From positions 798 to 64,797 of the forward strand of contig CAZYYD010000014.1 of assembly GCA_964651225.1 (NCBI GenBank): 64,000 bases of DNA. Direction: 5' to 3'. The DNA is from an uncultured Ignavibacteriaceae bacterium (GTDB lineage Bacteria > Bacteroidota > Ignavibacteria > UBA10030). Made by a program: the position numbers and the translations under genes. A model generated the notes under the pieces. It did no database searches, was not told the origin of the DNA, and worked only from the letters and a program-made list of their open reading frames with translations. This document shows positions 3,890-37,867 of this stretch, piece after piece; the stretch's first letter is position 1, and every line of letters begins with the position of its first letter.

Positions 3890-5944
3890 ATGCGAGAACG
3901 TACGGTAAAAGGCGAAACACAGCATCTTAACGACACCAAAACCGATTTTCCGACGCTGAAAGAATACGGAGTTCATGAACTGGATGTGACGCTGATCCGT
4001 CCCACGAACTACACGGACAACGGATACCCGATCAAAACACGTATCGGTGTCATCCGCAGCAACACCTTGACACAGATCGGTACACTCGTTCACGATCTGG
4101 TGAACTATCCTTTCTTCAGAGGAGTCTCGTTTAAAATCCGAAAGATTGACGAAGCGATTGAGTGGATACCGGAGAAGGAGATCCTGCATCGTTCTCAGGT
4201 GTCTGGTGTGAGATCCATCGTCATGCTCGTTGGTGTACAAACGAACCAGTACCCCCGGGCATTGGATATTGCAGCGAAGTTTCTGCCGCGGGGGATCCCG
4301 GTTGTCATCGGTGGTTTCCACGTCAGCGGTATGCTTGCGATGATCGGTGTAACTGACGACCTCAAAGCTGCAATGGTGAAAGGAATCACTCTTGTTGCCG
4401 GAGAAGTTGAAGGGGGGCGATTACCTGCGATCGTCGAGGATGTTCTCAGGAAAAAGGCGCAGCCGCTCTATAATTTCCTCAATGCCGCACCGAACCTGTT
4501 CGACGTTCCCATCCCGCATATCACGAAAGAAGAATTTGAGAATTTTGCATCACGGTTTACGACCATCGACACGGGGCGCGGGTGTGTCTTTAATTGCGAC
4601 TTTTGTACTATTATCAACGTGCAGGGCCGGACGATGCGGTATCGGGATCCAAAACAAGTCGTCGAATTTTTAAGACAAAGTTACTGCGAGGCAGGTGTGT
4701 CGCACTCGTTCTTTACGGACGATAACACAGCACGGAATCCGCGATGGCGAGAGCTATTTACGGAACTCACACGCATGCGTGAAGAAGAAAAAATCCCATT
4801 CACCTTTATGATGCAGAGTGATCTCGCTGCTCGAAAGATGCCTGGCGGAGATTTCTTTAAACTCGCAGCACGTGCAGGCTGTAATCAGGTCTTTTTCGGT
4901 GTGGAAAGTGTGAATCGGGAGAATCTCCGTTCGAAGGACAAGTTTCAGAACCAGGTGTCCGAGTACAAAGACCTCATGGATCATTGCCACTCGTTCGGTA
5001 TAACCTGCCACGCAGGGTATATTCTCGGATTGCCTTTTGATACGACAGAGAGCATCAAACAAGATGTTGCCGAGCTTCAGCGAATGATGTTCGATTCTGC
5101 ATCATTCTACATTCTTGCACCGCTTCCCGGTTCAAAGGATCATCAGCGGTGGTGGAAGGAAGGGCGGTGGATGCATGAAGATTTCAATGCCTACGATTCA
5201 GCTCATGTTGCTGTCAAGCCGGAACGCATGTCGTGTGATGAACTTATGGAAGCGTATCATAATGCATGGGAACAATTCTATTCCACCGAGCATATGGTAA
5301 ATGTTCTGAGGCTCTGGAGAGGTGACCCTCATTATTACAAGGAGAGGTTGTCCTTTTTTATGTGGTACCTGTATGCTTCGAGAATTGAACGTCTGCACCC
5401 GATGAACTGTGGATTCTGGACAGTACGGCACCGCAATGACCGCCGGGCAGGTCTCCCGCAGGAGTCATTTGTTCCATTTTGGTGGAACCGCTTGAAGGTC
5501 ATCACTCTCCGTTGCGGAGGAATGGTAAAACTGTTCTTCCAGTTTGAAGAGGTATGGCTCCGGACCCGGCCGAAGAGCACCATCGAAGAGGCGCTTCATG
5601 ACCTCATATCAAAGACGAAACAAGACATCATCGATTGGCGGGATCTGAGCACGAAAGAACTTGCAGCATTCTATGAGAGACTTTCTCTCGAGATACCGGG
5701 GATGACGGTCCCATCGATCGTACATCTTTGGTTCAAGAAACGAAATCCATTTGCCAGTGCATTTACGAGAGTATACGTTCAGCGAATCTGGCGGCGATGG
5801 TATCTCTATCTATGGAATCCACTAAAGTGGGTGGAAGTGTGGCTGTTCGAAGGGGTTCACGGCTTTCGATTCCTTACCCATCTTCTGGGCGAGGAAACGA
5901 AAAATGCAACAGCTCTTGCTGAAAGGAGGGCACCGTCCGGGTGA
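3890..5944 (+). CDS. B12-binding-domain radical SAM protein
   Basis: CxxxCxxC motif (GRGCVFNCDFC), N-terminal cobalamin-binding-like VVIGGFHVSG...GEVE, FTDDN, FFGVES, GYILGLPFD, PLPGS; Trp-rich C-terminus. Confidence 0.85.
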   Translation: MRERTVKGETQHLNDTKTDFPTLKEYGVHELDVTLIRPTNYTDNGYPIKTRIGVIRSNTLTQIGTLVHDLVNYPFFRGVSFKIRKIDEAIEWIPEKEILHRSQVSGVRSIVMLVGVQTNQYPRALDIAAKFLPRGIPVVIGGFHVSGMLAMIGVTDDLKAAMVKGITLVAGEVEGGRLPAIVEDVLRKKAQPLYNFLNAAPNLFDVPIPHITKEEFENFASRFTTIDTGRGCVFNCDFCTIINVQGRTMRYRDPKQVVEFLRQSYCEAGVSHSFFTDDNTARNPRWRELFTELTRMREEEKIPFTFMMQSDLAARKMPGGDFFKLAARAGCNQVFFGVESVNRENLRSKDKFQNQVSEYKDLMDHCHSFGITCHAGYILGLPFDTTESIKQDVAELQRMMFDSASFYILAPLPGSKDHQRWWKEGRWMHEDFNAYDSAHVAVKPERMSCDELMEAYHNAWEQFYSTEHMVNVLRLWRGDPHYYKERLSFFMWYLYASRIERLHPMNCGFWTVRHRNDRRAGLPQESFVPFWWNRLKVITLRCGGMVKLFFQFEEVWLRTRPKSTIEEALHDLISKTKQDIIDWRDLSTKELAAFYERLSLEIPGMTVPSIVHLWFKKRNPFASAFTRVYVQRIWRRWYLYLWNPLKWVEVWLFEGVHGFRFLTHLLGEETKNATALAERRAPSG

Positions 5945-6098
5945 CGTATAGATTCTTCGGAAGGCCGTGAATACGCAGAACACTGCAATCCTGCCTTGAT
6001 CTCCACAATAACAATAAAGTGATCACTTCAAGGGCGTCTTGAAAACCCTTTATCGTCGGGGGATGTCCATGGAGGGAATCCATCAGGACAAATCGTTT

Positions 6099-6130
6099 AA
6101 AGAGCTCTGAATATGGGGCTCTTTCTTTTT
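6099..6130 (+). terminator. intrinsic terminator downstream of the radical SAM gene
   Basis: AAAGAGCTCT-gaatat-GGGGCTCTTT stem (with G-U pairs) followed by CTTTTT. Confidence 0.7.
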
Positions 6131-6409
6131 ATGGTTCAGGAGAGAAAAAAGTTCAAGCAAGAGTCTTCCCGTCCGAAAAGAGCCAAACGATCGATCGTTA
6201 AGCGGTGGCAGAGCGATCAAATGATACACAGAGCCTGAAATACCATCCTTCAACCTCTTCTTACCAGATGATTCCAGTCAATGGAATCTGAAAATATTCG
6301 AAGCAGAACACTTCTGCACTGCATGAAACCGGTCATGAGAATATAATCGACCAATGATAATCGATTAATATTTTTTAAATAACAGCGGGTGTGTTCTCCA
6401 TATCACTGC

Positions 6410-6438
6410 TTGACCTTGAGACATGATTATCGTACCGT
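6410..6438 (+). promoter_or_regulatory. putative sigma70 promoter of the catabolic operon
   Basis: TTGACC-N17-TACCGT about 50 nt upstream of ATG 6490; weak -10 box. Confidence 0.4.
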
Positions 6439-6489
6439 AAAACACTTGGTAAATCAGACTATTGAGTGTTCATCATTTAAGGAGAAGCT

Positions 6490-7236
6490 ATGGCGATAGA
6501 TTTAGAAAAAATATTAAGACCAATTGACACGCCGCTGCCGGAATTTCCCGCAAAATATATGACCCTGGCAGGCGGCGAGCAGCTTGTCATCCGGCAGGTG
6601 ACACGCGACGAAATACCGGATATTCTTCCGTATGTGGAACCCCTGATGCACGTGGAACGCGATTATTACGATGTCGTCGCGGCACGTGTCTATTCGGAAT
6701 TGTTGGCCTATTACAATTATCGAGTTCAGGATGAATATGTCCTTGCAGCTCAAATTGAAGGAGAACTCGTCGCCGTAGTCAATGGCCGTATCGTCAATAA
6801 AGATATCGGAATGTCGCTTCACACGTTGGGGCTGCGCCGGGGATTGCGTGTGGGGGCGCACACGTTTGCAGCAAAGATGGAGTATCATATCGATATCCTT
6901 GGTCAGAAAGAAGTTCTTATCGTTGCTGAATCACCAATCGGGTTCCGTCGGTGGATGATCGAATATAAACTGGAAAAACGGTTTGAGATCCCCCATGAAC
7001 TCGGTGGCTGTCCGTCGTGGGCGCTGACAAAAGAGTTGTTTGATAAGGCCCGGAAGAGTCTGATTGTAGGGACACGCCCGGTCCCGGAAGCATTGTTGGC
7101 AAAAGCGAAAGCAGCAATCCTTCCTCCGAGCGATCCACCGAAACAAGCTGCTGATCTTCTAGCGGCAACCCGTTCACTCTACGACTCAACGGGCACCATT
7201 CTTCTCTCTCAGAGAACAAAATTGGGAGGGAAATAA
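6490..7236 (+). CDS. GNAT-like hypothetical protein
   Basis: AAGGAG RBS. Pattern LVIRQVT...YVLAAQIEGELVAVV...SLHTLGLRRGLRVGAH resembles GNAT beta strands and the R-x-x-G-x-G/A CoA-binding loop. First gene of the operon. Confidence 0.55.
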   Translation: MAIDLEKILRPIDTPLPEFPAKYMTLAGGEQLVIRQVTRDEIPDILPYVEPLMHVERDYYDVVAARVYSELLAYYNYRVQDEYVLAAQIEGELVAVVNGRIVNKDIGMSLHTLGLRRGLRVGAHTFAAKMEYHIDILGQKEVLIVAESPIGFRRWMIEYKLEKRFEIPHELGGCPSWALTKELFDKARKSLIVGTRPVPEALLAKAKAAILPPSDPPKQAADLLAATRSLYDSTGTILLSQRTKLGGK

Positions 7237-7238
7237 CA

Positions 7239-8414
7239 ATGCGTGAAGTCTATGTGGCAGGAATAGGAATTACCAGTTTTACCCGTCTGGAATATCCCCT
7301 TGTGGAAATTGCAGCGTATCCCGGCTTGATGGCGATGAAAGAGAGCGGGATAAAATCGATTGACCAGCTGTACGTTGCCAACATGGGTGCGTCAAAAGCC
7401 AACCATCAAACCGGATTAGCCAGTGCGGTTGTTGATCATATGAGTTTAACACCGGCAGGTGCTGAAGCGATAGAAAATGGGCCGGCCTCTGGTGCGTCGG
7501 CGATCAAACAGGGATTCCTGGGTGTTGCCTCTGGTATGTATAATACAGTGATGGTCATCGGTGCCGAACGTATGCGGGAAGTTAATAATCTGGAAGCGAC
7601 AGACTTCGTCGCAACCTTAACCCATCCACTGGCAGAATATATCTATGGTGTGACACTTCCTTCGTTAGCGGGCATGTTTGCCCGATTGTATATGGAGAAG
7701 TATGGAGTGACCCCACGCCATTTTGCCATGGTTGCTGTGAAAAATCACAAACATGCGATGGACAATTTCTATGCACATCTTCACGAGGAGATTACCCTTG
7801 AAGGTATTTTGGATTCGAAGGATTCGGCAACAAACAATCCGATGGTCGCTGATCCATTGCGCTATTATGATATGTGTCCCGTTTCTGATGGCGGCGCTTG
7901 CCTGATACTGGCGACAGCTGAAATTGCCAAGAAAACAGGCAAACCGATGGTACGTCTCGCCGGGATTGGCCAGGCAACGGATACACACGCAGTGCACGAT
8001 AGGAAAAATCCGACGGATCTCCTCGCAGTCCGTGAAGCCGCAAAAAAGTCTTTTGCAATGGCCGGTGTGAAACCGAAGGATGTTCATGTGGCGGAGCTGC
8101 ATGATGCATTTACGATTCTGGAAATTGTAGAAAGCGAGGAGGTGGGCTTCTTTGAAAAAGGGCAGGGACATATCGCGCTGCAGGAAGGTTATACAAAATT
8201 AGGCGGCAAGCTCCCCATCAATCCTTCCGGCGGCTTGAAAGCAAAGGGGCATCCCGTAGGTGCTACAGGCGTCGGCCAGGCGCATGAAATAGTTCTCCAG
8301 CTTCGCGGTGATGCAGCCAAACGACAGGTAAAGAATGCAAAAATCGGATTCACCTGTAATTTCGGCGGATTTGGTAATAATGTGGTGTGCCTCACCTTCG
8401 TGAAGGAGAATTGA
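7239..8414 (+). CDS. SCP2/archaeal-type thiolase-fold protein lacking the catalytic cysteine
   Basis: VYVAGIGITSF, IGAE, PVSDGGA, ELHDAF, INPSGGLKAKGHPVGATG. The usual E-x-A-C-A-S-G is ENGPASG. Confidence 0.9.
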   Translation: MREVYVAGIGITSFTRLEYPLVEIAAYPGLMAMKESGIKSIDQLYVANMGASKANHQTGLASAVVDHMSLTPAGAEAIENGPASGASAIKQGFLGVASGMYNTVMVIGAERMREVNNLEATDFVATLTHPLAEYIYGVTLPSLAGMFARLYMEKYGVTPRHFAMVAVKNHKHAMDNFYAHLHEEITLEGILDSKDSATNNPMVADPLRYYDMCPVSDGGACLILATAEIAKKTGKPMVRLAGIGQATDTHAVHDRKNPTDLLAVREAAKKSFAMAGVKPKDVHVAELHDAFTILEIVESEEVGFFEKGQGHIALQEGYTKLGGKLPINPSGGLKAKGHPVGATGVGQAHEIVLQLRGDAAKRQVKNAKIGFTCNFGGFGNNVVCLTFVKEN

Positions 8415-8416
8415 TT

Positions 8417-8764
8417 ATGGAAAAGAATATTTATGCATACAAATGCAGACGCTGCGGCCATGTGCAGTATCCGTATCGAACAATCTGCCGCAATTGCCAT
8501 GAGAACGACCATAATGAATTTGACATTGTTCCTCTTTCCAAAAAGGGAAAACTTATTACTTTCACGCATCTCTTTAATCCTCCGTCAGATTTCGAAACGG
8601 TTTTTCTCACGCTCGGGATCGTGGAACTGGATGACGGCAATCGCGTGACGTGTCAGCTGAATATCCCAAAACCCAAAATGGGTATGAAGGTGACCGGTAA
8701 AGTGGAGGTTGTCCGCAAAGATGAATATAATAAGTACCATGGATTCGTGTTTTACGAAGACTGA
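8417..8764 (+). CDS. DUF35 Zn-ribbon/OB-fold protein (thiolase partner)
   Basis: CRRCG...YP...CRNC, GKLITFT, LGIVELDDG, GMKV. AAGGAG RBS; ATG 8417 is 3 nt after the thiolase stop. Confidence 0.9.
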   Translation: MEKNIYAYKCRRCGHVQYPYRTICRNCHENDHNEFDIVPLSKKGKLITFTHLFNPPSDFETVFLTLGIVELDDGNRVTCQLNIPKPKMGMKVTGKVEVVRKDEYNKYHGFVFYED

Positions 8765-8795
8765 CCAGGGATTGGTTGTTTCCCGGCAATTGCAC

Positions 8796-9665
8796 ATGAG
8801 GGAAACACTTCTCTCTCCAAACAGGAGAGAAGTCCAAAACCCGACGCTGAGTAGTTATGGCGACTTCATCGTCCCCGGAGAATATCGGAGACATTCTCGA
8901 TTTTCACACGTTGCGAACTATCTTCTTGGTAAACATCTTATCTCTCTTGTTGATCCATCCATTGGGGCAGGGCCTCTGAATATCGTCGTCGAGAATGGAA
9001 TCCAGCACATTGTTGATCGAGTGATCATTGAACATGACAAGGTGATTCTCGATCATCGTATCTATGTCTGCACAACTGCAGTACGATATGATTCTTCATT
9101 GCCAATTCTTTCTCTTTCCGATCTTCAGCTTATCAAAAATAATCTTCCAACATTCAAACGTATCCTGAGAGATTGTGCTCCCGAAAAAAGTATTGCCTTT
9201 CTACTCGATGAATCCGAGGAATTACATTCTCCACTATCGTTTGAATCAATATTGAAAGAGCGGTTTCTCAGAGGCAGGAAGCTGATCGTGGAGGGGAACG
9301 TCCTGGAGGCTGTTCGCACAATGAAAGGACTGGGATTTGGATTGACACCCAGCGGCGATGATTTCATCTCGGGTTTTGTGCTTGGATTGAATCTTCAACA
9401 AATTCCATTAGCCATTGATTTTCAAAACCTTATGAGGGAAATATTTGAGATCGCACAGTCTGATAATCCTCTTTCCCGGGCATGGCTTCAATGCTCAATA
9501 AAAGGCCGACTCTTTGAAAAAATGAAGCAGGTAATTCTCGCTTTAGGGCAAAAGGATCCAAATGAACTCCTGCGAGCCGTACACCGGCTCTTAACAGTTG
9601 GATCAAGTTCGGGGATTGATATGGCCGTTGGATTTGTATTTGGAATGGAGTATGTTCGAGTATGA
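8796..9665 (+). CDS. yahE: DUF2877 protein (YahE/YlbF(AllH)-like)
   Basis: GLGFGLTPSGDDFISG and VGSSSGIDMAVG signatures, GAGPLNIV. Start uncertain (8709 or 8796). Stop overlaps the next start (ATGA). Confidence 0.8.
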   Translation: MRETLLSPNRREVQNPTLSSYGDFIVPGEYRRHSRFSHVANYLLGKHLISLVDPSIGAGPLNIVVENGIQHIVDRVIIEHDKVILDHRIYVCTTAVRYDSSLPILSLSDLQLIKNNLPTFKRILRDCAPEKSIAFLLDESEELHSPLSFESILKERFLRGRKLIVEGNVLEAVRTMKGLGFGLTPSGDDFISGFVLGLNLQQIPLAIDFQNLMREIFEIAQSDNPLSRAWLQCSIKGRLFEKMKQVILALGQKDPNELLRAVHRLLTVGSSSGIDMAVGFVFGMEYVRV

Positions 9666-11227
9666 TGATCAAAGGCTTGATCAAGAAGGGTGAATATTAC
9701 GACTCTGTGACTTTGATGTCGGCTGTTAAGCAGCTCAACACGTTGAACGGTGTCCGGGATAGTGCTATCGTCATGGGCACAAAGGAAAATAGATCGATCC
9801 TGGATGCGTCGGGGCTTCTGTTGGATGAATTTCAATTGAGCAGCGACAACGATCTGCTCATTGTTGTGAAGACGGACACGGCCGGTGAAGCAGAGCAGGC
9901 GTTGTCAGGTGTTGGGACAGTTCTCCAATCTGTCCGGAGACGTGTTCAACCCGGTTCTTCACCTTTACCGCGAAGTCTTCCACAGGCGCAGAAAATCCTT
10001 CCCGGGGCAAACCTAGCACTCATTTCAGTCGCAGGGCGGTATGCCGGAGACGTCGCCATGAACGCCTTAGAGCATGGACTGCATGTGATGCTATTCTCGG
10101 ATAATGTCTCGCTTGAACAGGAAGTCGCCCTGAAACAATATGCTATTGAGCATCAATTGCTGGTAATGGGACCGGATTGCGGTACGGCCATCATCAATGG
10201 TGTACCTTTGGCGTTTGCGAATGTGGTAACTCGCGGTGATATCGGGATTGTAGCTGCAGCGGGGACTGGATTACAAGAGGTAAGCTGTCTGATCTCTCGA
10301 GGCGGGTGCGGTGTATCTCAAGCTCTCGGGACCGGCGGTCGGGATGTAAAAAAAGAAGTTGGCGGTTTGATGTTTATCAAGTCAATGCAATTGCTGGCGC
10401 AAGATCCGAAGACGAAGATTCTTCTCCTTATCTCAAAACCACCTCATCCGGAAGTGTTGGAGAACATAGGGAAACTGGCGAAAAAAATCCCGAAGCCGGT
10501 TATCGGGGCCTTTCTTGGTGCAGATCATGAGACGATGAAGAACCATGGTATGCATCCGGCAGGCACATTGGAAGAAGCGGCAGCTCTTGCGGTTATTCTT
10601 TCATCTGGAGGAAGGGCAGAAGAAGTTAAAACCCACCTGGAAAAAGAATACGAATTACTTCAAATGAGCGCAAAGCAGGAAGCAGGGAAATTACATAAAC
10701 CGCAAAAATATATCCGCGGATTATTCAGTGGAGGGACATTCTGTTATGAAGCCCAACTGCTTCTGAAAGATCTGAAAGAACCGATCTTCTCGAATGCACC
10801 GACCGGGATTTCTGCGAAGCTTGTGAATTCACTTAAAAGTCAGAAACATACGCTGATCGATCTCGGAGAAGATGAGTTCACCGTTGGACGTCCGCACCCC
10901 ATGATTGACTATTCATTGAGAAATAAACGCATTATTGAAGAGGCAGCAGATCCAGAAACAGCTGTCATTCTATTGGACGTGGTACTTGGATATGGGTCGA
11001 ATCCGGAACCTCTGAAAGATATATTGCCGTCAATTATTCAGGCACAGAAATCTGCACGGCAGAGAAATCGATCTATTGTAATTGTTTGTTCGGTGACTGG
11101 AACGGATGCTGATCCACAGAATCGAATTCTCGTGGTCAAAGGACTCGAACAAGCGGGAGTGATTGTGATGAACTCGAATGCCGCTGCAGGTTTGCTCGCC
11201 GGCAGAATCATTGAAGAAATCGAATAA
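9662..11227 (+). CDS. fdrA: FdrA/YahF-family acyl-CoA-synthetase-like protein
   Basis: YYDSVTLM, ALISVAGRYA, FSDNVSLEQE, MGPDCGTAII, GTGLQEV, GLFSGGTFCYEA, DLGEDEFTVGRPHPMID. Confidence 0.9.
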   Translation: MMIKGLIKKGEYYDSVTLMSAVKQLNTLNGVRDSAIVMGTKENRSILDASGLLLDEFQLSSDNDLLIVVKTDTAGEAEQALSGVGTVLQSVRRRVQPGSSPLPRSLPQAQKILPGANLALISVAGRYAGDVAMNALEHGLHVMLFSDNVSLEQEVALKQYAIEHQLLVMGPDCGTAIINGVPLAFANVVTRGDIGIVAAAGTGLQEVSCLISRGGCGVSQALGTGGRDVKKEVGGLMFIKSMQLLAQDPKTKILLLISKPPHPEVLENIGKLAKKIPKPVIGAFLGADHETMKNHGMHPAGTLEEAAALAVILSSGGRAEEVKTHLEKEYELLQMSAKQEAGKLHKPQKYIRGLFSGGTFCYEAQLLLKDLKEPIFSNAPTGISAKLVNSLKSQKHTLIDLGEDEFTVGRPHPMIDYSLRNKRIIEEAADPETAVILLDVVLGYGSNPEPLKDILPSIIQAQKSARQRNRSIVIVCSVTGTDADPQNRILVVKGLEQAGVIVMNSNAAAGLLAGRIIEEIE

Positions 11228-11236
11228 GAACTCTCT

Positions 11237-12640
11237 ATGAAAAATCTTTTCGAACAAGAGCTTCAAGTCATCAATATCGGACTGCAATCGTTCAAGGAAA
11301 CTTTGGATGCGTGCAACGTGAAATCAGTTCAAGTTGATTGGAAGCCGCCGCTCGCTGTTTCGGCCTCAGCAAATGCAGTGCTTCGATCACACCGCGGAAG
11401 GATTGAACAGGCGAATCAACGCGCAGTACAGAGGATCATGAAAGGCAGACCTGCGTTGGTTGGCTTGGATAGAGCAGGGGATGTTATTCCGGGGATGAAA
11501 AAAACCCTTTTACTCCATGCCGGACCGCCAATTGGATGGGATCGGATGTGCGGACCTATGAGAGGTGCCATTATCGGTGCGTTAGTCTATGAAGGTCTAG
11601 CAAGGACTCCGGAAGAAGCAGAACAAATTGCCCAGTACGGACAGATCGAATATGCCCCATGCCATGAGCATCAGACTGTGGGACCGATGGCTGGTGTCGT
11701 ATCGTCATCGATGCCAGTCTTCATTGTCAAAAATGAGGAATATGGAAATTATTCCTACAGTACGATGAATGAAGGGCTCGGAAAAGTGCTGCGCTATGGA
11801 GCATTCAGTGAAGAAGTAGTAAACCGGTTGAAATGGATGGAGAATGTGTTATACCCGGTATTGAAGCAAGCAGTGACAGCAGCGGAGCGTGTCGATCTAA
11901 AGGCCATCATCGCGCAAGCACTGCATATGGGAGATGAAGTCCATAACCGAAATCGTGCCGCAACGTCATTGCTGTTCCGGGCACTCGCACCGCACATTGT
12001 ACGGACCTGCAACGATCAGAGTACCTCAGCAAAGGTTCTTGATTTTATCAACGGGAATGATCATTTCTTCCTCAATCTCTCCATGGCAGCAGGGAAGGCT
12101 TGTCTTGACGCCGCACGGAATACGAAAGAGAGCAGTATCGTTGTGGTGATGGCAAGAAATGGTACGGACTTTGGTGTTCAACTTGCGGGGACAGGAAATG
12201 AGTGGTTCATTGGCCCGGCCCCTGTCCCGGATGCATTGTTCTTTCCGGGTTTCACGAAAGAGGATGCTAATCCGGACATTGGCGACAGTGCAATTACGGA
12301 GACGTACGGTCTTGGCGGATTCGCGATAGCAGCATCACCAGCCATTGTACAATTTGTCGGTGGACAAGCAAGGGATGCACTGTACTATACATTACAGATG
12401 TATGAAATTACGACTGAAGAAAATCCGGGATTCCAAATTCCTTCCTTGGATTTTCGCGGAACCCCAACCGGTATCGATGTCAGAAAAGTCGTGGACACTG
12501 GAATTATGCCGTTCATTGATACCGGAGTGGCGCATAAAAAACCGGGTATTGGTCAAGTCGGCGCGGGTGTTCTTTCTGCGCCGGCCGAGCCATTCATCAA
12601 TGCCTATGAAGGTCTTGCAAGGAAATTGAGCAAACGGTAA
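11237..12640 (+). CDS. yahG: DUF1116 protein (YahG/YlbE(AllG)-like)
   Basis: LLHAGPPI, PCHEH..VGPMAG, NEGLGKVLRYGA, MGDEVHNRN, NDHFFLN, ARNGTDFG, DIGDSAITE, IDTGVAHK. Confidence 0.9.
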   Translation: MKNLFEQELQVINIGLQSFKETLDACNVKSVQVDWKPPLAVSASANAVLRSHRGRIEQANQRAVQRIMKGRPALVGLDRAGDVIPGMKKTLLLHAGPPIGWDRMCGPMRGAIIGALVYEGLARTPEEAEQIAQYGQIEYAPCHEHQTVGPMAGVVSSSMPVFIVKNEEYGNYSYSTMNEGLGKVLRYGAFSEEVVNRLKWMENVLYPVLKQAVTAAERVDLKAIIAQALHMGDEVHNRNRAATSLLFRALAPHIVRTCNDQSTSAKVLDFINGNDHFFLNLSMAAGKACLDAARNTKESSIVVVMARNGTDFGVQLAGTGNEWFIGPAPVPDALFFPGFTKEDANPDIGDSAITETYGLGGFAIAASPAIVQFVGGQARDALYYTLQMYEITTEENPGFQIPSLDFRGTPTGIDVRKVVDTGIMPFIDTGVAHKKPGIGQVGAGVLSAPAEPFINAYEGLARKLSKR

Positions 12641-12667
12641 GATGACTGCATAGTTTTGTATTTTGAC

Positions 12668-12738
12668 ATTCCCTCACGTTGTCAGAGGGAATCTTGCTGA
12701 ACGTCATAGTAGGACTCCCGTCAACAATCCGCGGGAGT
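12668..12738 (+). repeat. two intercistronic stem-loops
   Basis: ATTCCCTC-N9-GAGGGAAT (12668-12692) and ACTCCCG-N11-CGGGAGT (12714-12738); no U-tract. Confidence 0.55.
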
Positions 12739-12764
12739 GACATTATCCCCCAAAAGGAGTGCAT

Positions 12765-13577
12765 ATGAACTCGAAACAATTTTTTGATTTTATGGACAAG
12801 ATCAAAATGTTCGATCTGACACAGCGTCTTTCGATCCACACACCTCCCTGGCCAAGTTATATGCCCCTCGGCATCCAGTATTTCAAACGTATTGCAGGGG
12901 CCCATATGGGACAAGGAGCGAACGGGCAGATCATTACGACAAGCAATCATGTCGGGACGCATATTGATGGTGAAATTCATTTCCATGCCAGCGGGCGGAC
13001 GATCGGTCAGGTGCCGATGGAGGAATGGGTCGGCCCGGGAGTCGTTGTGGATATCTCAAAGGAGGTTTCCGATTATAGTCTGTATTCTCCGGATCTTCTC
13101 ATGAGCAAAGCAGAGATCAAGAAGGGTGATATTCTGATCATCAATACCGGGTATCATCAGTATGCATGGGACCAATCTGGTTCGGATGAAATTCGATATT
13201 TTGTTAAGCATCCAGGCCCGGATCCGAAATTCCACACATGGGCGTTGAACATGAAATTCAAATGGATTGGAGTAGATTGTGGAAGTGCTGACCATCCAAT
13301 GAATACGATTATTAGGAACTGGCATCCGAAGTCGTTTGTTGAGGCTGACAAGAAGTTGAAGCAGGACTATGGTAAAATCTGGGATGAGATGTTTCCTCTC
13401 GAGGAGTATTATCAAGTGATGCACTTAAAACTCTTTCCCAAGAAGTTGATCCATGCTGAAAATGTCGGGGGTGAAATAGACCAGTTGTCGAACAAGCGGG
13501 CTTGGATCGGATTGTTCCCGCTGCGCGGCATTGAAATGGAATCTTCCATGTGTCGCATTGTGGCATGGATGCCCTAG
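12765..13577 (+). CDS. cyclase-family metal-dependent hydrolase (KynB/isatin hydrolase superfamily)
   Basis: HVGTHIDG metal motif (HxGTHxD), GDILIINTG, GVD, HAENVGG. AAGGAG RBS favours ATG 12765. Confidence 0.9.
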   Translation: MNSKQFFDFMDKIKMFDLTQRLSIHTPPWPSYMPLGIQYFKRIAGAHMGQGANGQIITTSNHVGTHIDGEIHFHASGRTIGQVPMEEWVGPGVVVDISKEVSDYSLYSPDLLMSKAEIKKGDILIINTGYHQYAWDQSGSDEIRYFVKHPGPDPKFHTWALNMKFKWIGVDCGSADHPMNTIIRNWHPKSFVEADKKLKQDYGKIWDEMFPLEEYYQVMHLKLFPKKLIHAENVGGEIDQLSNKRAWIGLFPLRGIEMESSMCRIVAWMP

Positions 13578-13585
13578 GAGACGAT

Positions 13586-14473
13586 ATGCCCATTCTGCAG
13601 GAATTCGAATATTTCAAACCTTCCTCAGTCAACGAAGCTCTTCATCTGCTCTCGCACTATAAAAGAGCCTCTGTGTTGGCGGGAGGTACGGACCTCGTCA
13701 ACAATCTTAAAAGTGAAATCGATCAGCCCGATGCCGTTGTGGATATCAAAGGCATCAGCGGATTGCATACGATCGTGTTCAAAAAGAATATTCTGACGAT
13801 CGGTGCAGCTGTGACGTTTTCCGAGCTGATCGCATCAAAAATCATTCAATCAAAATATCCTGTAATTGCAGAGGCCGCAAAGACCGTCGGATCTGCCGGT
13901 ATTCGCAATAGAGCAACGATGGTCGGGAATATTTGTTCTGCAGTTGCATGCGCAGACAGCAGTCCGCTGCTCTTGGTATTTCAGGCGAACGTACTCGTGC
14001 AGGGAAAGAAGGGAAAGCGCAAGGTTGCCATAGCGAAGTGGCTGAAGGGGAATAAGAAGACAGATTTGAAGAAGGGCGAACTCGTGCTCGCAATCGAAAT
14101 CCCTCTTCCGGCAAAAAAATATGCCGGACGTTTTGTGAAGATGGGACGATATTCGGGTGAAGATCTTGCACAGGCGAGTGTGGTGATTCTGGCATTGCCG
14201 AAAAACCAATTCAGAATTGCGTTCGGCTCGGTCGGTCCCGTTCCTATGAGAGCGGCCGCGATCGAAAAAGTTCTCAATGGCCGTGAACCATCACCAGAGC
14301 TGATCAAGGAAGCAAAAGCAATGGTTCCGGCGCTGATATCACCCATCACAGATATCAGGGCGACAAAGGAATACCGTATGCATATGTCTCAGGTGATGTT
14401 CGGGCGCGGTTTGAACGACGCTGTCGAGCGGTTTCGGGGTAAAGGATCTGATTACGGTGTGAGCCTTCTATAA
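13586..14473 (+). CDS. Mo-hydroxylase (xanthine dehydrogenase family) FAD-binding subunit
   Basis: FEYFKPSS, LAGGTDL, IRNRATMVGNIC, SPITDIRATKEYR. AGGAG RBS before ATG 13586. Confidence 0.92.
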   Translation: MPILQEFEYFKPSSVNEALHLLSHYKRASVLAGGTDLVNNLKSEIDQPDAVVDIKGISGLHTIVFKKNILTIGAAVTFSELIASKIIQSKYPVIAEAAKTVGSAGIRNRATMVGNICSAVACADSSPLLLVFQANVLVQGKKGKRKVAIAKWLKGNKKTDLKKGELVLAIEIPLPAKKYAGRFVKMGRYSGEDLAQASVVILALPKNQFRIAFGSVGPVPMRAAAIEKVLNGREPSPELIKEAKAMVPALISPITDIRATKEYRMHMSQVMFGRGLNDAVERFRGKGSDYGVSLL

Positions 14474-14504
14474 TGGAACTGACGAACCTATGGAGTTGTT
14501 ACCT

Positions 14505-15011
14505 ATGAAACGAAAGTTATCGTTCCTCCTCAATCGACGGCAAGTTCATGTGGAAGTTGAGCCGCAAGAGATCCTGTTGGATGTACTGCGCGACCGCTTG
14601 GGTATCAAGACTCCCAAATGCGGATGCGATCGTGGGGACTGTGGTTCTTGTTCCGTGCTGATTGACGGGAAGACAGTGCGGAGCTGCATGGTGCTGGCGA
14701 TGGAAGTCGCCGGTCTAGCCGTAACAACGATCGAGGGATTACTTGAAAATGATCACTTGACACCGCTGCAGGAATCATTTATTCATCATAATTCTTTTCA
14801 ATGCGGGTTTTGCGCACCGGGCATCATTCTTTCTGCGACCGAGCTGTTGGAACACAACACCCACCCGAATGATGACGAGATCAAAGAAGCTATCTCTGGA
14901 AATTTATGCCGATGCACAGGGTACCAGCCCATCATTGATGCAATAAAAGATTTGACCTCCCATCCGGAATCCTTCAACAGAACTGATGTGAAGAAGGAGG
15001 TGAAGTCATGA
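14505..15011 (+). CDS. Mo-hydroxylase 2x[2Fe-2S] subunit
   Basis: GCDRGDCGSC...SC and QCGFC...NLCRCTGY. Alternative start at 14490. Confidence 0.95.
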   Translation: MKRKLSFLLNRRQVHVEVEPQEILLDVLRDRLGIKTPKCGCDRGDCGSCSVLIDGKTVRSCMVLAMEVAGLAVTTIEGLLENDHLTPLQESFIHHNSFQCGFCAPGIILSATELLEHNTHPNDDEIKEAISGNLCRCTGYQPIIDAIKDLTSHPESFNRTDVKKEVKS

Positions 15012-17353
15012 GCAGCTTAAAATTTGTGGGACAGGATGCGATCCGTATTGATGGGAAGGCAAAAGTCAGCGGTGCTGCTCAGTATGTCGACGATCTGGAA
15101 TTCGGGCCGGGATTACTTTTTGCAGAAATTGTTGAAAGTCCATTCGCACATGCGGAGATCTTGAAGATTGACACATCAAAAGCCGAACGAGTACCGGGTG
15201 TGATCAAGGTGGTGACCGGAAAAGATTTTCCATTTAGTTTCGGCTTATATCTGCAGGATCGGTATGTCTTTGCACAAGACCGTGTCCGGTTCGTCGGCGA
15301 GCAAGTTGCCGCCGTCATTGCAATCGACATCGTTACAGCAAAGAGAGCGGCAAAATTGGTCACCGTGACATATAAAGAATTGACCCCCGTTCTCACCGTA
15401 GAAGATGCTCTGAAGGAGCATCCGCTGCTCCTCCACCCGAATTTGAAGAATTATAAGCGTGTCCCATGGTTCTTTCCTCAAGCGGATACCAATATCGCTC
15501 ATCTGAGAAAAGTGCGGAAGGGAAACACCGATGATGGATTGAACAATGCTGATCTTGTGTTCGAAGATACCTACACTGTTCCACGATATGCACATTGCGC
15601 TATCGAAACGCATGGGGCTGTTGGTTTGTATGACCTCACCGGACGATTGACGGTCTGGGCGGCATCACAATCGCCATTCACTCAGCGCAATCTCTTTGCC
15701 GAAGCCCTGGCTCCGCTCGGATTGACGCATAACGATGTCCGGGTCATTGCACCATTTGTCGGCGGAGGATTTGGAGGGAAAGCCGGAGTTTCGATGGAGA
15801 TTCTGGCTGCAGCATTGGCCACCACAGTACGGGGGAATCCTGTCAAAATCATCTGGTCTCGTGCGCAGGAATTTTATAACACGTATCAGCGGCAAGGATT
15901 GGTTGCAAAGACAAAGATCGGCGTGAAAAAGGACGGTACGATTACAGCGCTGGAGCAGACATTATATTGGGATGCAGGCGCGTACGTCGAATACGGAGCA
16001 AATGTTGTCAATGCTGCGGGCCTTTCAGCCACCGGTCCATATCGGATCCCCAATGTCAAAATAGACTCGTATTGCATTTATACGAATCTGCCGCCAGGAG
16101 GACCATATCGGGGTTTTGGATATTCTGAGTTCTTATTCGGTCTCGAGTCGCATATCAATGAGACAGCGAAGAGAATTGGATTGGATCCGGTAGAATTCAG
16201 ACGACGCAATGCAATTCAAGAAGGGGATATTTTGAACTATGGAGGCCATATGAATCCCAGCGGCCTCCGAGAATGTATTGATAAGGCTGCCGAAGCGATT
16301 GGTTGGGGAAAGAGAGTTGAGAATGCTACTGAGTCGACAAAAGTTACCGGCAAGGGGTTCGCCTGTTTCTGGAAGGCGCCTGCGATGCCTCCCAATGCTG
16401 CATCAAGCGCCTTTATCAAATTCAATGAAGATGGAAGTCTTAATATCCTCATCTCAGCAATGGAAATCGGTCAGGGACTCTTGACCGTGATGGCTCAAAT
16501 AGCAGCAGAAGTGCTGACCGTGCCGATTTCCAAGATTCGTGTTGAAGTGCCCGATACAGATCGGAATCCCTACGAATGGCAAACCGTTGCTTCACATATT
16601 ACGTGGGGTACCGGGAACGCTGTGAAGAAAGCGGCAGAAGATTGTCGCGAACAGATTTTTGACCTTGTCGAGCATGCTCTTGGCAAGAAACGAGAAGATT
16701 TGTATTTAGAAGGGGAACATGTCTGCTCGCGGAGCGATCCGACATTCAAAAAACCTTTGCGCGAGTTCGTTATCAACGGCTTGATGATGAGTGATGGAAC
16801 GTTCCGCGGCGGTCCGATCATGGGCCGCGGCATGTTTATGCCGGAATTCGCTTCTGCTCTTTCTGACCCTGAAACAAGTCAGGGAGGGAAACCGAACGTT
16901 CATTATACAGTGGGTGCCGCTGCCGTGGAACTGGAAATTGACCGCGAAACGGGTCGCATGCGCATACCGAAAGTTGTACTTGCTGTTGATGTCGGAAAAG
17001 CGATCAATCCAGACTTGGTGAGGGGACAGGTCGTTGGAGGAATTGTGCAGGGAATTGCCACCGTGTTATACGAGGATATGCGGTTCAACGAAAAAGGGCG
17101 TCTCCTGAATCCGAATTTCACTGACTATAAAATTCCAACATCAATGGATATTCCCGATGAAATAATTTCGATCTTAGTTGAAGTGCCTCAGCCAGATGGC
17201 CCCTACGGGGCGCGCGGAGTTGGAGAGCATACAATGATTCCGGCCGCTCCCATCATTGCCAATGCGATAGAAGATGCTCTGGGGATTCGTATAAAATCTA
17301 TGCCCATCACTGCAGAAAAAGTGGCGCTAGAAATATTACGGGCAAAGAAATAG
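15008..17353 (+). CDS. Mo-hydroxylase molybdopterin-binding subunit
   Basis: KVSGAAQY, AHCAIETHG, VGGGFGGK, YRGFG, EIGQG, DVGKAINP, GARGVGE (catalytic Glu). Confidence 0.95.
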   Translation: MSSLKFVGQDAIRIDGKAKVSGAAQYVDDLEFGPGLLFAEIVESPFAHAEILKIDTSKAERVPGVIKVVTGKDFPFSFGLYLQDRYVFAQDRVRFVGEQVAAVIAIDIVTAKRAAKLVTVTYKELTPVLTVEDALKEHPLLLHPNLKNYKRVPWFFPQADTNIAHLRKVRKGNTDDGLNNADLVFEDTYTVPRYAHCAIETHGAVGLYDLTGRLTVWAASQSPFTQRNLFAEALAPLGLTHNDVRVIAPFVGGGFGGKAGVSMEILAAALATTVRGNPVKIIWSRAQEFYNTYQRQGLVAKTKIGVKKDGTITALEQTLYWDAGAYVEYGANVVNAAGLSATGPYRIPNVKIDSYCIYTNLPPGGPYRGFGYSEFLFGLESHINETAKRIGLDPVEFRRRNAIQEGDILNYGGHMNPSGLRECIDKAAEAIGWGKRVENATESTKVTGKGFACFWKAPAMPPNAASSAFIKFNEDGSLNILISAMEIGQGLLTVMAQIAAEVLTVPISKIRVEVPDTDRNPYEWQTVASHITWGTGNAVKKAAEDCREQIFDLVEHALGKKREDLYLEGEHVCSRSDPTFKKPLREFVINGLMMSDGTFRGGPIMGRGMFMPEFASALSDPETSQGGKPNVHYTVGAAAVELEIDRETGRMRIPKVVLAVDVGKAINPDLVRGQVVGGIVQGIATVLYEDMRFNEKGRLLNPNFTDYKIPTSMDIPDEIISILVEVPQPDGPYGARGVGEHTMIPAAPIIANAIEDALGIRIKSMPITAEKVALEILRAKK

Positions 17354-17531
17354 ATAGAGCAGTCTCCTGTGCCGGATTGTGGTTTAATGTTCCCTCAACC
17401 CATCGTAAGGACTTTTTCCAAATTGAAATGAAAACCTGTACTCATTAAGTCGTTATTTAGTAATAATTTACAGGTAAGTGTCATCTCTCTCTTTGCTCCT
17501 CTGATTTGTTTCTCAATATGATCACTACCCC

Positions 17532-17560
17532 TTGCTAAATCTCCTTATGCTCTCTATATT
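17532..17560 (+). promoter_or_regulatory. sigma70-type promoter of gdhA
   Basis: TTGCTA-N17-TATATT. Confidence 0.6.
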
Positions 17561-17571
17561 GGACACCATAA

Positions 17572-19002
<1,431 letters not shown>

Positions 19003-19039
19003 TCGGCGCTCTGTTGCGTTCATCTGTATGCAAAATCAT

Positions 19040-19087
19040 AGGTGACCGTTATCTCTTGACATGCTTCGGTGGGGGTAACGGTCACCT
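19040..19087 (+). repeat. strong stem-loop downstream of gdhA
   Basis: AGGTGACCGTTATCTC...GGGGGTAACGGTCACCT, about 16 bp with G-U pairs; no U-tract. Confidence 0.6.
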
Positions 19088-19298
19088 GAATATTCCGCAT
19101 AAATCGATAGCAGGAATGAGTAGTATAATCAACAGGCCGTGAACTCCGTCTCCAATCAGGTATATCTGTTGATTGGAAAAAATAGATTCTTTCCAGAATA
19201 TTCAGGATAATGTTATGGAATATATTCTTACAGTCCTCTGAAGAGATAAGACGAAACGCGAACCTGCGCTCAGATTCGCAAAATGCAGGTAGGAATGC

Positions 19299-22200: not shown

Positions 22201-22313
22201 CTCAGAAAGAGTACACAAAGTTGATCCGATTCGATACCCCTCTTACCATTCGCATCAACGGACATCAAAGCAAAGGGATGATCTTAAAGCCGGAGGCGTA
22301 CCATGGGCACTGA
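19299..22313 (+). CDS. receiver-domain / PEP-pyruvate-binding (PPDK_N ATP-grasp) hybrid protein
   Basis: Receiver-like segments (NVLLVSS...FDLIVTT; IIVIEDD...GIISDIDF); ATP-grasp motifs GGKARGL, LAVRSSSLLEDS..FAGVYET, MAVIVQ, LLQMRP; C-terminal SQGSHFFHN. Confidence 0.85.
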   Translation: MGSNLDQVISSIDPLWVEHGYGNRFQGFQNLMRIRISNVLLVSSLYDLYLFEEDGRLYELIRNEYEGFNLSHAPELTRVSSGQDAIALAKEERRFDLIVTTLHIDDMHAIDFARMVKESGLNIPIVLLAHDNRELKYLLMNHDTSVFTKVFIWQGDFRIIIAIIKFLEDRLNIEHDTHIVGVQTIIVIEDDVRQYSSILPIIYTEILKQSQRLISEGINLSHKFLRMRARPKILLCHTYEEAWKVYRRYTEFILGIISDIDFPHRGIQDPQAGLEFAQHVKKKQSDLPILLLSNGSENQQRAHEAGASFILKDSPQFLQELRQFMIRYFSFGDFIFRLKDGTEVGRASDMKSMEDVLRVVPEESIRFHAERNHFSNWLKARTEFWLADKLRPRKVSDYPTVEGLRKDLITSLHQYRNIRQRGIIADFSKDTFDPESSFARIGGGSLGGKARGLGFVNTLINDYNVRDRFEGVRIYVPSAVVIATDVFDQFLDENELRDFAFHCQDDREITKRFLAAEKFPSDILADLSAFLEVVHMPLAVRSSSLLEDSQYHPFAGVYETYMIPNIHQNPLARLNDLLNSIKRVYASTFYKSSKEYIGITSYRLEEEKMAVIVQKLAGKTHDNRYYPDISGVAKSYNFYPVSPQKSSDGTVSVALGLGKWVVDGGNTIRFCPKYPTDILQFHSVKETLNSTQRSFFSLELDANADFGSETHDMMVQQHELEVAEQDKVLQYVGSTYSTENDVIYTGLSRQGIRVITFAPILQNNLIPIPQIVELLLDMGVWGMGTPVEIEFAVNFPKPERNIVEFALLQMRPLVIHREPEEYLVEATDRSTILCQSDQVLGHGVIEGVRDIVLVDYHRYDRGKSREVAREVALFNSQLISENRSYLLIGVGRWGSFDPWLGIPVTWEQIAGAKAIIETGFKDFDVTPSQGSHFFHNITAFMVGYFTINEHKQQGFLDWDWVLKQTPNTQKEYTKLIRFDTPLTIRINGHQSKGMILKPEAYHGH

Positions 22314-22500
22314 GAACCCTGAAGAGCATACGGTATTCAATACCTGTCCACACTGCGGTCAGAAACTGAGTCCATGGCAGCAAGTCCTCCTGAATGTCGA
22401 TCGTGCTTTAATGTGTAAGAATTGTTGGTACAGAATTATTTTAGACTCGGAAGAAGGACCGGACACACCGAATGGTCAATCTCCGACGCAGAAGGAGTAA
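22303..22500 (+). CDS. small Zn-finger protein (CPHC...CKNC)
   Basis: GGAGG RBS. Overlaps the upstream stop and ends 3 nt before the next ATG. Two CxxC motifs. Confidence 0.65.
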   Translation: MGTENPEEHTVFNTCPHCGQKLSPWQQVLLNVDRALMCKNCWYRIILDSEEGPDTPNGQSPTQKE

Positions 22501-22503
22501 CCC

Positions 22504-37413: not shown

Positions 37414-37786
37414 GAATGTATAGTTAGAATATTCTTCCAATGAAAGAGACTTCCTTCTCCACTATCCGGAAGATTTATCAGTTCGATATATCTTTATGTC
37501 TTTGTGCTTCCATCCCGGCCGTGAGTCTTCGGGGAGCTTTTAACAATAGGGTTGTCACCTCATGTTTATTCAAAAATAAAAATTTCGCAACCCGCTTCTG
37601 GCGAAAATACCACACAGGAGTTTCTGTTAAAAATGGACTCTCCAGAAACGGAAAGTTGATTGAATAAATTTGAAAAGGAGCTGTTATCTTACTCTGACAA
37701 TATTGATTTGGGAAATAGAAAACAAGGGATACACTGAAGAATCCCTTGAGTCATTCCCTTGATAAATGGATTTTTTAAAGATTCGC

Positions 37787-37815
37787 TTGAATCCGATTAT
37801 TTTCTTTTCTACATT
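37787..37815 (+). promoter_or_regulatory. sigma70 promoter of the lipoprotein operon
   Basis: TTGAAT-N17-TACATT. Confidence 0.55.
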
Positions 37816-37867
37816 CGTTGAGATAAAGAAACGGACATTTGCAGTCAACCTTAACCATGGAGGACTT

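Follow-up and report, generated by a model that had tools for sequence, protein, structure and literature searches.

The oxidative pathway of pyrimidine breakdown has been known biochemically since the 1950s, and barbiturase is the only well-described gene family that we found for it in the literature searched. In this pathway uracil is oxidized to barbiturate, which is opened to 3-oxo-3-ureidopropanoate (ureidomalonate) (PMC3758960). A related carbamoyl chemistry is that of E. coli AllFGH, which interconverts oxalurate plus phosphate and oxamate plus carbamoyl phosphate and whose genes share a transcript with that of a catabolic carbamate kinase (PMC11326118); in metagenome-assembled genomes of nitrifiers, allFGHK lies beside triuret and biuret genes (PMC12625717). 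Here we analyse ten genes of an uncultured Ignavibacteriaceae bacterium (assembly GCA_964651225.1), found at 6490-17353 on the + strand of a 64,000-nucleotide stretch of contig CAZYYD010000014.1 (positions 798 to 64,797), hereafter the window. The cluster is real and conserved, and it is probably a variant of the oxidative pyrimidine pathway that has not yet been described. Judging from its sequences, we think it likely that the operon encodes a phosphorolytic, O2-independent form of this barbiturate route.

The ten open reading frames (ORFs) are co-oriented and tightly packed in the ORF table, with junctions of -4 to +16 bases except for a 118-base gap preceding the cyclase gene g07. An earlier reading of the same DNA, made without database searches and referred to below as the original prediction, had listed ten co-oriented genes and six of their junctions (7236/7239, 8414/8417, 9665/9662, 11227/11237, 13577/13586 and 15011/15008), all of which are exact. 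Families were assigned by Pfam and NCBIfam profile matches in a scan of 33 window proteins:

g01, 6490..7236, + strand: GNAT-fold protein of 248 residues, from a narrow, highly conserved family without a name; opens the trio g01-g03
g02, 7239..8414, + strand: thiolase-fold protein of the SCP2/archaeal type, without both catalytic cysteines (Thiolase_C_1 145.5 bits, Thiolase_N 79.5 bits)
g03, 8417..8764, + strand (ORF bounds 8387/8417-8764): DUF35 protein, a four-Cys zinc ribbon plus an OB fold (OB_ChsH2_C 28.7 bits, zf-ChsH2 23.5 bits)
g04, 8709..9665, + strand: AllH-like subunit (PF11392 AllH 85 bits); start uncertain, with three candidates (TTG 8709, ATG 8739, ATG 8796)
g05, 9662..11227, + strand: AllF/FdrA-like subunit, succinyl-CoA-synthetase-alpha-like (NF004760 501.8 bits, cut-off 433)
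g06, 11237..12640, + strand: AllG-like subunit (PF06545 AllG 330.6 bits)
g07, 12759..13577, + strand: cyclase-family metal amidohydrolase, candidate barbiturate ring opener (PF04199 113.8 bits, cut-off 23.1)
g08, 13586..14473, + strand: FAD subunit of the molybdenum (Mo) enzyme, its ORF opening with GTG at 13550 (FAD_binding_5 168.1 bits, CO_deh_flav_C 62.7 bits)
g09, 14490..15011, + strand: 2x[2Fe-2S] subunit (Fer2_2 110.2 bits, Fer2 29.8 bits)
g10, 15008..17353, + strand: molybdopterin subunit, candidate uracil (or thymine) dehydrogenase (MoCoBD_1 255.4 bits, MoCoBD_2 251.3 bits)

Conservation of the cluster and exchange of its parts

A scan of one genome per species gave 93 relatives of g01, and 80 loci were kept. 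They belong to Bacteroidota, Ignavibacteria, Chlorobiaceae, Verrucomicrobiota, KSB1, Zixibacteria, Elusimicrobiota, Lentisphaerae, Actinomycetota (mostly Acidimicrobiia), Myxococcota and others, the carriers being mostly uncultured lineages from lake-water, groundwater, bog and sediment metagenomes. The thiolase-like gene adjoins the g01 relative in 77/80 loci, the three misses lying at a locus edge, and a g03-type DUF35 gene adjoins the thiolase-like gene in 72/80. All nine core genes are present in 34/80 loci. Of the loci flanked by 9 kb or more on each side (35 in all), 30 contain the Mo subunit and 31 AllG, and in three the trio stands alone. Identity to the window across phyla is 70-88% for g01, 67-90% for the thiolase-like protein and 53-90% for the cyclase, and the Mo subunit is 66-80% identical to that of the window in 45 loci. 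Such recurrence is far beyond chance; the original prediction would have been refuted had the genes not occurred together elsewhere.

Two arrangements of the trio-bearing cluster were found. The order of the window (type A) is GNAT-thiolase-DUF35-AllH-FdrA-AllG-cyclase-FAD-FeS-Mo; that of Actinomycetota (type B) is AtzD-like-AllH-FdrA-AllG-FAD-FeS-Mo-GNAT-thiolase-DUF35. Each of the 34 complete loci has either a cyclase gene (18 loci) or an AtzD-family gene (16 loci), never both. The AtzD-like protein of type B matches PF09663 with 464.8 bits; among solved structures its best match is barbiturase 5hwe_A (502.7 bits, E 4.8e-150), well ahead of any cyanuric acid hydrolase (310.5 bits at most). 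The two activities are separated by five residues, R195, T321, R325, G345 and G346 in AtzD and N, H, K, V and S/A in barbiturase (Peat et al., PMC3758960). All 30 linked AtzD-family genes that we tabulated have N, H, K and V, followed by G, A or S; the remainder of the table consists of two cyanuric-type genes (R, T, R, G, G) and one further gene matching neither type. On sequence grounds, the type B gene is a true barbiturase orthologue. The barbiturase-type residues, together with the best match, indicate that the ring opener of type B is a barbiturase; in type A the cyclase fills the same slot. A barbiturase in these sister clusters would fix barbiturate as an intermediate. A PF09663 profile search of the window's own genome gave no match, a weak negative since control genomes were equally silent.

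Barbiturase genes were also followed outside the trio-bearing loci. PF09663 occurs in 21/401 sampled Actinomycetota genomes; one was left out, 19 neighbourhoods were examined and 8 of them extended. Complete clusters of a third form (type C) are carried by seven genomes (G050, G065, G095, G110, G207, G414 and G425), and that of G194 is interrupted by a contig end. Their order is barbiturase, NCS2 permease, carbamate kinase, AllH, FdrA, AllG, in some a PAS/receiver gene, then FAD, FeS, Mo, amidase and a hydantoinase-A-like gene; AllH was not detected in the G065 cluster. The permease belongs to the NCS2 nucleobase:cation symporters (TIGR00801 225.7 bits, Xan_ur_permease 266.8 bits), and its orthologues, 53-74% identical, adjoin barbiturase in 11 genomes. 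The identity of the carbamate kinase is supported by TIGR00746 (337.7 bits) and PRK12352 (296.9 bits, above the cut-off of 266). The amidase, present in 7/7 complete clusters, aligns over its full length with malonamidase E2 (1ock_A, 282.8 bits, E 4.9e-83), the next family, GatA, scoring 146. Such a linkage of barbiturase, AllHFG, carbamate kinase and a malonamidase-like enzyme is what would be expected if ureidomalonate were phosphorolysed and malonamate then deamidated.

The trio and the amidase do not meet. No g01 relative was found in the five type C genomes tested, and the 80 loci with the trio are in turn free of both the type C amidase and the hydantoinase-like gene. Searched with the amidase at E<=1e-40, G000, G036 and G041 gave no match, and G042 and G043 only partial ones. 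Of the neighbourhoods examined, six contain family III CoA-transferase genes: that of G208 and those of five of the seven complete type C clusters. The gene directly 3' of the malonamidase-like amidase resembles hydantoinase A and caprolactamase alpha (L138:10185-12311, with counterparts in G050, G425, G110, G065, G207 and G140) and scores 512.6 bits with NF050156, below the cut-off of 1000; a window counterpart of this caprolactamase-like HyuA was considered, and none was found in the 80 loci. As a separate observation, two type B loci (L057:6577-7632 and L079:12479-13318) have a distant NCS2 gene, 31-33% identical, directly 3' of DUF35.

A fourth form appeared among 41 relatives of the window organism. 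Five of these genomes have the cyclase gene, the same five have the AllG-like gene, and the two genes are neighbours every time. One of these relatives, G013, has a type A cluster severed at both ends of a 6.8-kb contig, which explains why g01 was seen in only 2/41. Two genomes, G025 and G033, have the order FAD-FeS-Mo-AllH-FdrA-AllG-cyclase-amidase (type D), with g01 in neither genome. In G033 (L156:1196-3772, G033:C3) the cluster is headed by genes for a dihydropyrimidinase (TIGR02033 594.2 bits, against a cut-off of 393.25) and for a family III CoA-transferase, neither of which was found in the G025 locus; this pair hints that reductive and oxidative routes of pyrimidine breakdown may meet here and that malonate may be activated through CoA transfer. 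The four forms display two mutually exclusive exchanges: cyclase with trio (A), cyclase with amidase (D), barbiturase with trio (B) and barbiturase with amidase (C). By this comparison, trio and amidase appear to hold the same last slot, and malonamate is the likely substrate of that slot.

The proposed route and its enzymes

In the route that we favour, g08-g10 would use water to hydroxylate C6 of uracil, and perhaps of thymine, yielding barbiturate along with two reducing equivalents. The cyclase g07 would then open barbiturate to ureidomalonate, which elsewhere is the job of the unrelated AtzD-family barbiturase, and g04-g06 would cleave ureidomalonate with phosphate to carbamoyl phosphate and malonamate. 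A carbamate kinase encoded elsewhere in the genome would turn carbamoyl phosphate into ATP, NH3 and CO2, and g01-g03 would dispose of malonamate, leaving an acetyl unit; decarboxylation might occur in the Asn/His oxyanion hole retained by g02 and amide removal on g01. This final step is the least certain; the position of the trio comes from gene context, and its chemistry is a guess. The original prediction had sketched the same sequence (uracil > barbiturate > ureidomalonate > malonamate + carbamoyl-P > acetyl unit) as one testable model, which gains support from the barbiturase exchange (16/34 complete loci), the linkage of kinase and permease and the malonamidase-like exchange. The same comparative evidence disfavours the indole, pyridine and modified-purine substrates that it had named as alternatives. 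A linked transporter or kinase, which it had suggested looking for, is present in the Actinomycetota clusters (NCS2 permease, carbamate kinase) and absent from the window.

The Mo enzyme is the sole redox enzyme among the ten genes. Its large subunit g10 remains below all NCBIfam equivalog cut-offs (XdhA 545.4 bits against 780, PRK09970 519.7 against 916, pucD 434.5 against 783.65), including that of the alpha subunit of 4-hydroxybenzoyl-CoA reductase (4-HBCR; TIGR03194, 535.1 bits, cut-off 994.55); g08 scores 131.1 bits with the beta subunit model of the same enzyme (cut-off 404.55). The best solved relative of g10 is 1rm6_A, 4-HBCR alpha, with 352.6 bits, the next being quinoline oxidoreductase (Qor) with 253. 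The g10 sequence GVGEH contains a Glu that lines up with the catalytic Glu of bovine xanthine oxidase and Qor, where the motifs are GEP and GES. In the motif GGGFGGKA, g10 has Ala after GGGFGGK where bovine xanthine oxidase has a Glu.

Ureidomalonate is oxalurate with one additional CH2. All three AllFGH-type subunits (AllF/FdrA, AllG and AllH) are encoded together in the window; g05 matches the E. coli FdrA structure 3dmy_A with 290.5 bits, and g04 is 28-38% identical to its counterparts in type A loci. The window's cluster contains no amidase-signature gene, and the AllHFG-like genes would occupy the place of the hydrolytic ureidomalonase. Another locus (L115, G129:C6:94000-113900) has an AtzD-like gene at 9512 about 1.5 kb from AllH/FdrA/AllG-like genes at 12066-15900, and this AtzD-like protein is of the cyanuric-acid-hydrolase type (R, T, R, G, G). 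The occurrence of AllHFG-like genes beside a cyanuric-type AtzD gene, as well as beside the triuret and biuret genes of nitrifiers, suggests that the family of complexes is not tied to a single substrate; it might also phosphorolyse acyl-ureas of the biuret or carboxybiuret type.

The candidate ring opener g07 carries the sequence H-V-G-T-H-I-D-G-E-I-H intact, the metal-binding His/Asp motif of the cyclase family. Its nearest solved relatives are kynurenine formamidases and isatin hydrolase. With the arylformamidase equivalog it scores 50.4 bits, so far below the cut-off of 223.05 that it is not KynB itself.

The first protein of the trio has no Pfam family at E<=0.001, GNAT families included. 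An AF2/AlphaFold model of g01, built from a 30-sequence alignment (pLDDT 86.3), shows a GNAT fold; its top Foldseek matches are all GNAT acetyltransferases (probability 1.0), and in an independent VIA scan of 48,161 chains GNATs make up all 50 matches listed, the best being 1yre_A (Z 12.5, rmsd 3.2 Å over 161 aligned residues). The automatic names of its ESM Atlas neighbours are also N-acetyltransferases. A GNAT fold is thus confidently predicted, and the label "GNAT" given by the original prediction holds at the level of the fold only. We found 2399 relatives of g01, of which the best 120 are all at least 75% identical and any given name is "hypothetical protein"; the family forms only 174 clusters at 50% identity among 1.8 billion representatives. 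S109, H111, G122, K129 and G151 are invariant. GNATs bind the acyl-CoA pyrophosphate through a motif Q/R-x-x-G-x-G/A; the loop of g01 at this place reads R-G-L-R-V-G, with Arg at the first Gly of the motif.

The second protein, g02, aligns end to end with archaeal-type thiolases, its best solved relatives being 4yzo_A, 7yvy_A and 6esq_A. Pro82 aligns with the nucleophile Cys of 7yvy and 6esq, and HDAF stands where 6esq has HDCF. Both features are invariant in 75/75 family members, which bears out the "Cys-less thiolase" of the original prediction. The thiolase oxyanion-hole residues Asn and His are kept (N328, H338), and conservation in the family reaches 97% or more at 160 of the 391 positions. 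This conservation and the retained oxyanion hole point to a working enzyme with changed chemistry rather than a decaying gene. The nucleophilic Cys is also absent from PDB 4yzo_A, a "putative acyl-CoA acyltransferase" with Ser-Gly-Ser-Gly at that place; Cys-less proteins of the archaeal-type thiolase branch therefore exist outside the g02 family too.

DUF35 proteins are the usual partners of SCP2-type thiolase-fold proteins, and the zinc-ribbon cysteines C10, C13, C24 and C27 of g03 are invariant in 20 sequences. The three genes of the trio are separated by 2 and 2 bases, and g03 overlaps g04 or leaves a short gap, depending on the start of g04. No domain of the HMGCS/KAS III type, which could form a third subunit, was found in the cluster with Pfam. 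A complex prediction for the thiolase-like, DUF35 and GNAT proteins scored 0.10 against a mark of 0.32 and is taken as evidence neither way. A bolder reading of the trio, which we hold to be possible but rather unlikely, is that it constitutes a new enzyme system turning malonamate and CoA into acetyl-CoA, CO2 and NH3, so that the operon would encode a complete fermentative pyrimidine pathway. The exchange of amide for thioester on the GNAT fold would be uphill, and decarboxylation in the oxyanion hole of the thiolase fold would drive it. If this were true, the operon together with carbamate kinase would gain from each uracil, without O2, two ATP by substrate-level phosphorylation as well as two reducing equivalents, in a pathway spread by gene transfer through uncultured anaerobes, which would also bring genes for uracil dehydrogenase and a second, cyclase-type barbiturase.

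Expression, alternative readings and surroundings

The host genome encodes a carbamate kinase (384 bits, above cut-off) and, also away from the window, an NCS2 permease. As a phyletic marker the kinase was dropped as not discriminating, being present in 35/41 relatives of which few have the cluster. Twelve public runs contain the stretch or part of it; five are lake-water metatranscriptomes, and four of these were examined. Contigs from the RNA libraries match the window at >=99% identity. In one run (X3) a single contig spans 6538-13871, from g01 to g08, and in another (X4) contigs cover 6456-10281, 10348-13754 and 13890-17412. No contig is listed over 6336-6455 or 17565-17585, and adapter-like loose ends lie at 6335, 17586 and 17602. 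This cover agrees with a unit of about 6456-17564, though gaps in cover prove nothing, and the lake-water contigs agree with in situ expression without proving it. A promoter and terminator scan of 5800-17800 gave 18 and 16 sites, no better than chance (15.8 and 10.7 expected).

Several points weigh against the phosphorolytic pyrimidine route. Every step of it is read from homology and gene context, and we know of no cyclase-family enzyme that opens barbiturate. The closest solved relative of g10 is 4-HBCR and no hydroxylase of pyrimidines or purines, and the type C Mo subunits are only 28-31% identical to g10, so that the two Mo enzymes may not share a substrate. Carbamate kinase is absent from the window and from the 80 loci, 78 of which have neither kinase nor permease; its presence in the host says little, since it is common in the order, and the host's single copy has an OTCase-family gene on either side. 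The type D amidase is not specifically malonamidase-like, its 155 bits being tied with GatA and 2dc0. The high identity across phyla implies strong constraint and probably horizontal spread, so that the 80 loci are not independent. Finally, the RNA-library contigs may derive from carried-over DNA and cannot show one transcript.

The comparative evidence bears differently on the competing explanations. The same logic could serve another N-heterocycle, such as a 5-substituted pyrimidine, a hydroxypyrimidine or a triazine-like ring giving a trioxo six-membered ring, in which case g08-g10 would be no uracil dehydrogenase. Room for this is left by a Mo subunit that lies under every equivalog cut-off and far from its type C counterparts, and by the AllHFG-like genes beside a cyanuric-type AtzD gene in L115 and beside triuret and biuret genes (PMC12625717). 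The linked AtzD-family genes nevertheless have barbiturase-type residues in 30/30 cases and a barbiturase as best solved match, and the malonamidase-like enzyme, the dihydropyrimidinase and the NCS2 nucleobase permease all suit pyrimidines. Barbiturate, moreover, is to our knowledge, and partly according to PMC3758960, found in nature only as a product of uracil oxidation, and we judge a different ring improbable. Purines themselves, in an ordinary purine or allantoin breakdown with xanthine dehydrogenase and an oxamate carbamoyltransferase acting on oxalurate, receive the least credence. It is true that XdhA, XdhB and XdhC are among the best NCBIfam models, top for g10 and g08 and second for g09, and that AllH and AllG are Pfam names. 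The Xdh models all remain below their cut-offs, however, and g10 has Ala instead of the xanthine oxidase Glu after GGGFGGK. Allantoin-pathway families are missing among the 33 window proteins scanned, and the partners found elsewhere are homologues of barbiturase and malonamidase rather than allantoinase or ureidoglycolate enzymes.

Two further explanations turn on CoA esters. The trio may be a separate CoA-ester module, a retro-aldolase resembling Ltp2 or Sal or a scaffold, that travels with the other seven genes. Cys-less thiolase-fold proteins with DUF35 partners are indeed known as steroid-CoA aldolases (PMC12329534), no chemistry is known to link a GNAT fold with malonamate, and lone trios do occur (3/35), with unrelated families or none as neighbours. 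Yet the lone-trio genomes tested have adjacent AllG-like and cyclase genes elsewhere in 5/5 cases, trio and amidase are complementary over the four cluster forms, and the tight junctions of the trio, up to g04, argue for one operon; a metatranscriptome contig also runs from g01 to g08. An independent module is quite improbable. An aryl- or heteroaryl-CoA pathway (indole, anthranilate, hydroxybenzoate, nicotinate) is very improbable. In it, a CoA thioester would be the substrate of the Mo enzyme, as with 4-HBCR, the FdrA/AllG-like proteins would serve as CoA ligase, the cyclase as a hydrolase of the isatin or formamide type and the thiolase-like protein in side-chain cleavage, which would suit the 4-HBCR similarity of g10, the CoA-ligase and CoA-binding domains of FdrA and the solved relatives of the cyclase. 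Against it, g10 reaches little more than half and g08 about a third of the respective 4-HBCR cut-off, both cysteines are absent from the thiolase-like protein, and the cyclase/barbiturase exchange has no place in such a pathway, nor do the links to carbamate kinase, malonamidase and permease.

The genes around the operon do not recur in the 80 related loci. Upstream lie a radical-SAM gene and a GH130 gene, and downstream two glutamate dehydrogenases (GDHs) around a PPDK_N/receiver protein. The original prediction had proposed that the two GDHs handle released ammonia, an idea abandoned because no GDH counterpart exists in any of the 80 loci; a role for the PPDK_N/receiver gene was dropped on the same ground. 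The downstream arrangement (17641-23751) is itself odd, with GDHs of 453 and 415 residues flanking a 1004-residue protein with a receiver and a PPDK_N ATP-binding domain. The radical-SAM protein (3890-5944) has 684 residues and no second recognised domain; a 545-base spacer follows its gene, with an 11-pair stem and T-run at 6099-6124. Farther away, ORFs of 185 and 408 residues at 37766-38323 and 40761-41987 have no Pfam family.

Comparison with known systems

In a literature search from which subscription journals were largely absent, we found no paper that connects barbiturase or the oxidation of uracil with a cyclase, malonamidase, carbamate kinase or AllFGH-like genes, nothing on AllFGH-like enzymes in pyrimidine breakdown, on a cyclase-type barbiturase or on a GNAT/thiolase-fold/DUF35 module, and no reference sequence or gene for uracil/thymine dehydrogenase; nor did we find a description of an arrangement combining all these families, as the original prediction had supposed. 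The clusters give two lineages of candidate uracil/thymine dehydrogenase genes, suggest that the AllFGH carbamoyltransferases, a class discovered recently, have a second natural substrate, and lead us to propose two unrecognised functions: the opening of barbiturate by a cyclase-family enzyme and the action of a GNAT/thiolase-fold/DUF35 module on malonamate. If the route is true, pyrimidine breakdown would yield ATP through phosphorolysis and need no O2, and the pathway may matter for nucleic-acid turnover in anoxic habitats.

The subunits g08-g10 have the same three-part architecture (Mo, FAD and 2x[2Fe-2S]) as 4-HBCR (1rm6) and the xanthine oxidase family. They differ from 4-HBCR in falling far below the family cut-offs, with a mismatch in the beta subunit, and in their proposed action as a hydroxylase of free pyrimidines. 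The trio resembles the thiolase-HMGCS-DUF35 complex (6esq), PhlACB (5m3k), Ltp2-ChsH2(DUF35) and Sal-Shy (6ok1; PMC12329534), which likewise join an SCP2/archaeal-type thiolase fold to a separate DUF35 protein, and in Ltp2 and Sal the nucleophilic Cys is absent as in g02. The third partner of these assemblies is an HMG-CoA synthase/KAS III-like protein or a MaoC hydratase, whereas that of the window is a GNAT-fold protein; the window trio is further set apart by its invariant Pro in place of Cys, by the lack of a CoA-activating enzyme in the operon and by its context of putative pyrimidine breakdown. In type C, the slot of the trio is taken by a homologue of malonamidase E2 of Bradyrhizobium (1ock), an enzyme of the amidase-signature fold without sequence similarity to the trio, which may decarboxylate as well as deamidate.

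With AllFGH and AllK of E. coli (PMC11326118) the window shares three homologous subunits and, as proposed, the reaction type, phosphorolysis of an N-acyl-urea. AllFGH acts on oxalurate among allantoin genes, whereas the proposed substrate of g04-g06 is one carbon longer, the context is a cyclase and a Mo hydroxylase, and the kinase is unlinked. The oxidative pyrimidine pathway of Rhodococcus, Mycobacterium and Nocardia, with uracil/thymine dehydrogenase, barbiturase and ureidomalonase, has the same first two steps and intermediates as those proposed here. Its barbiturase is of the AtzD family, and type B shares a true orthologue of it, while the window has a cyclase-family protein instead. 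The classical ureidomalonase converts ureidomalonate and water into urea and malonate (PMC3758960), in contrast to the split by phosphate that we propose for the window. What is new here is thus probably an ATP-yielding, phosphorolytic lower part of the oxidative pyrimidine pathway together with two non-orthologous replacements of its enzymes.

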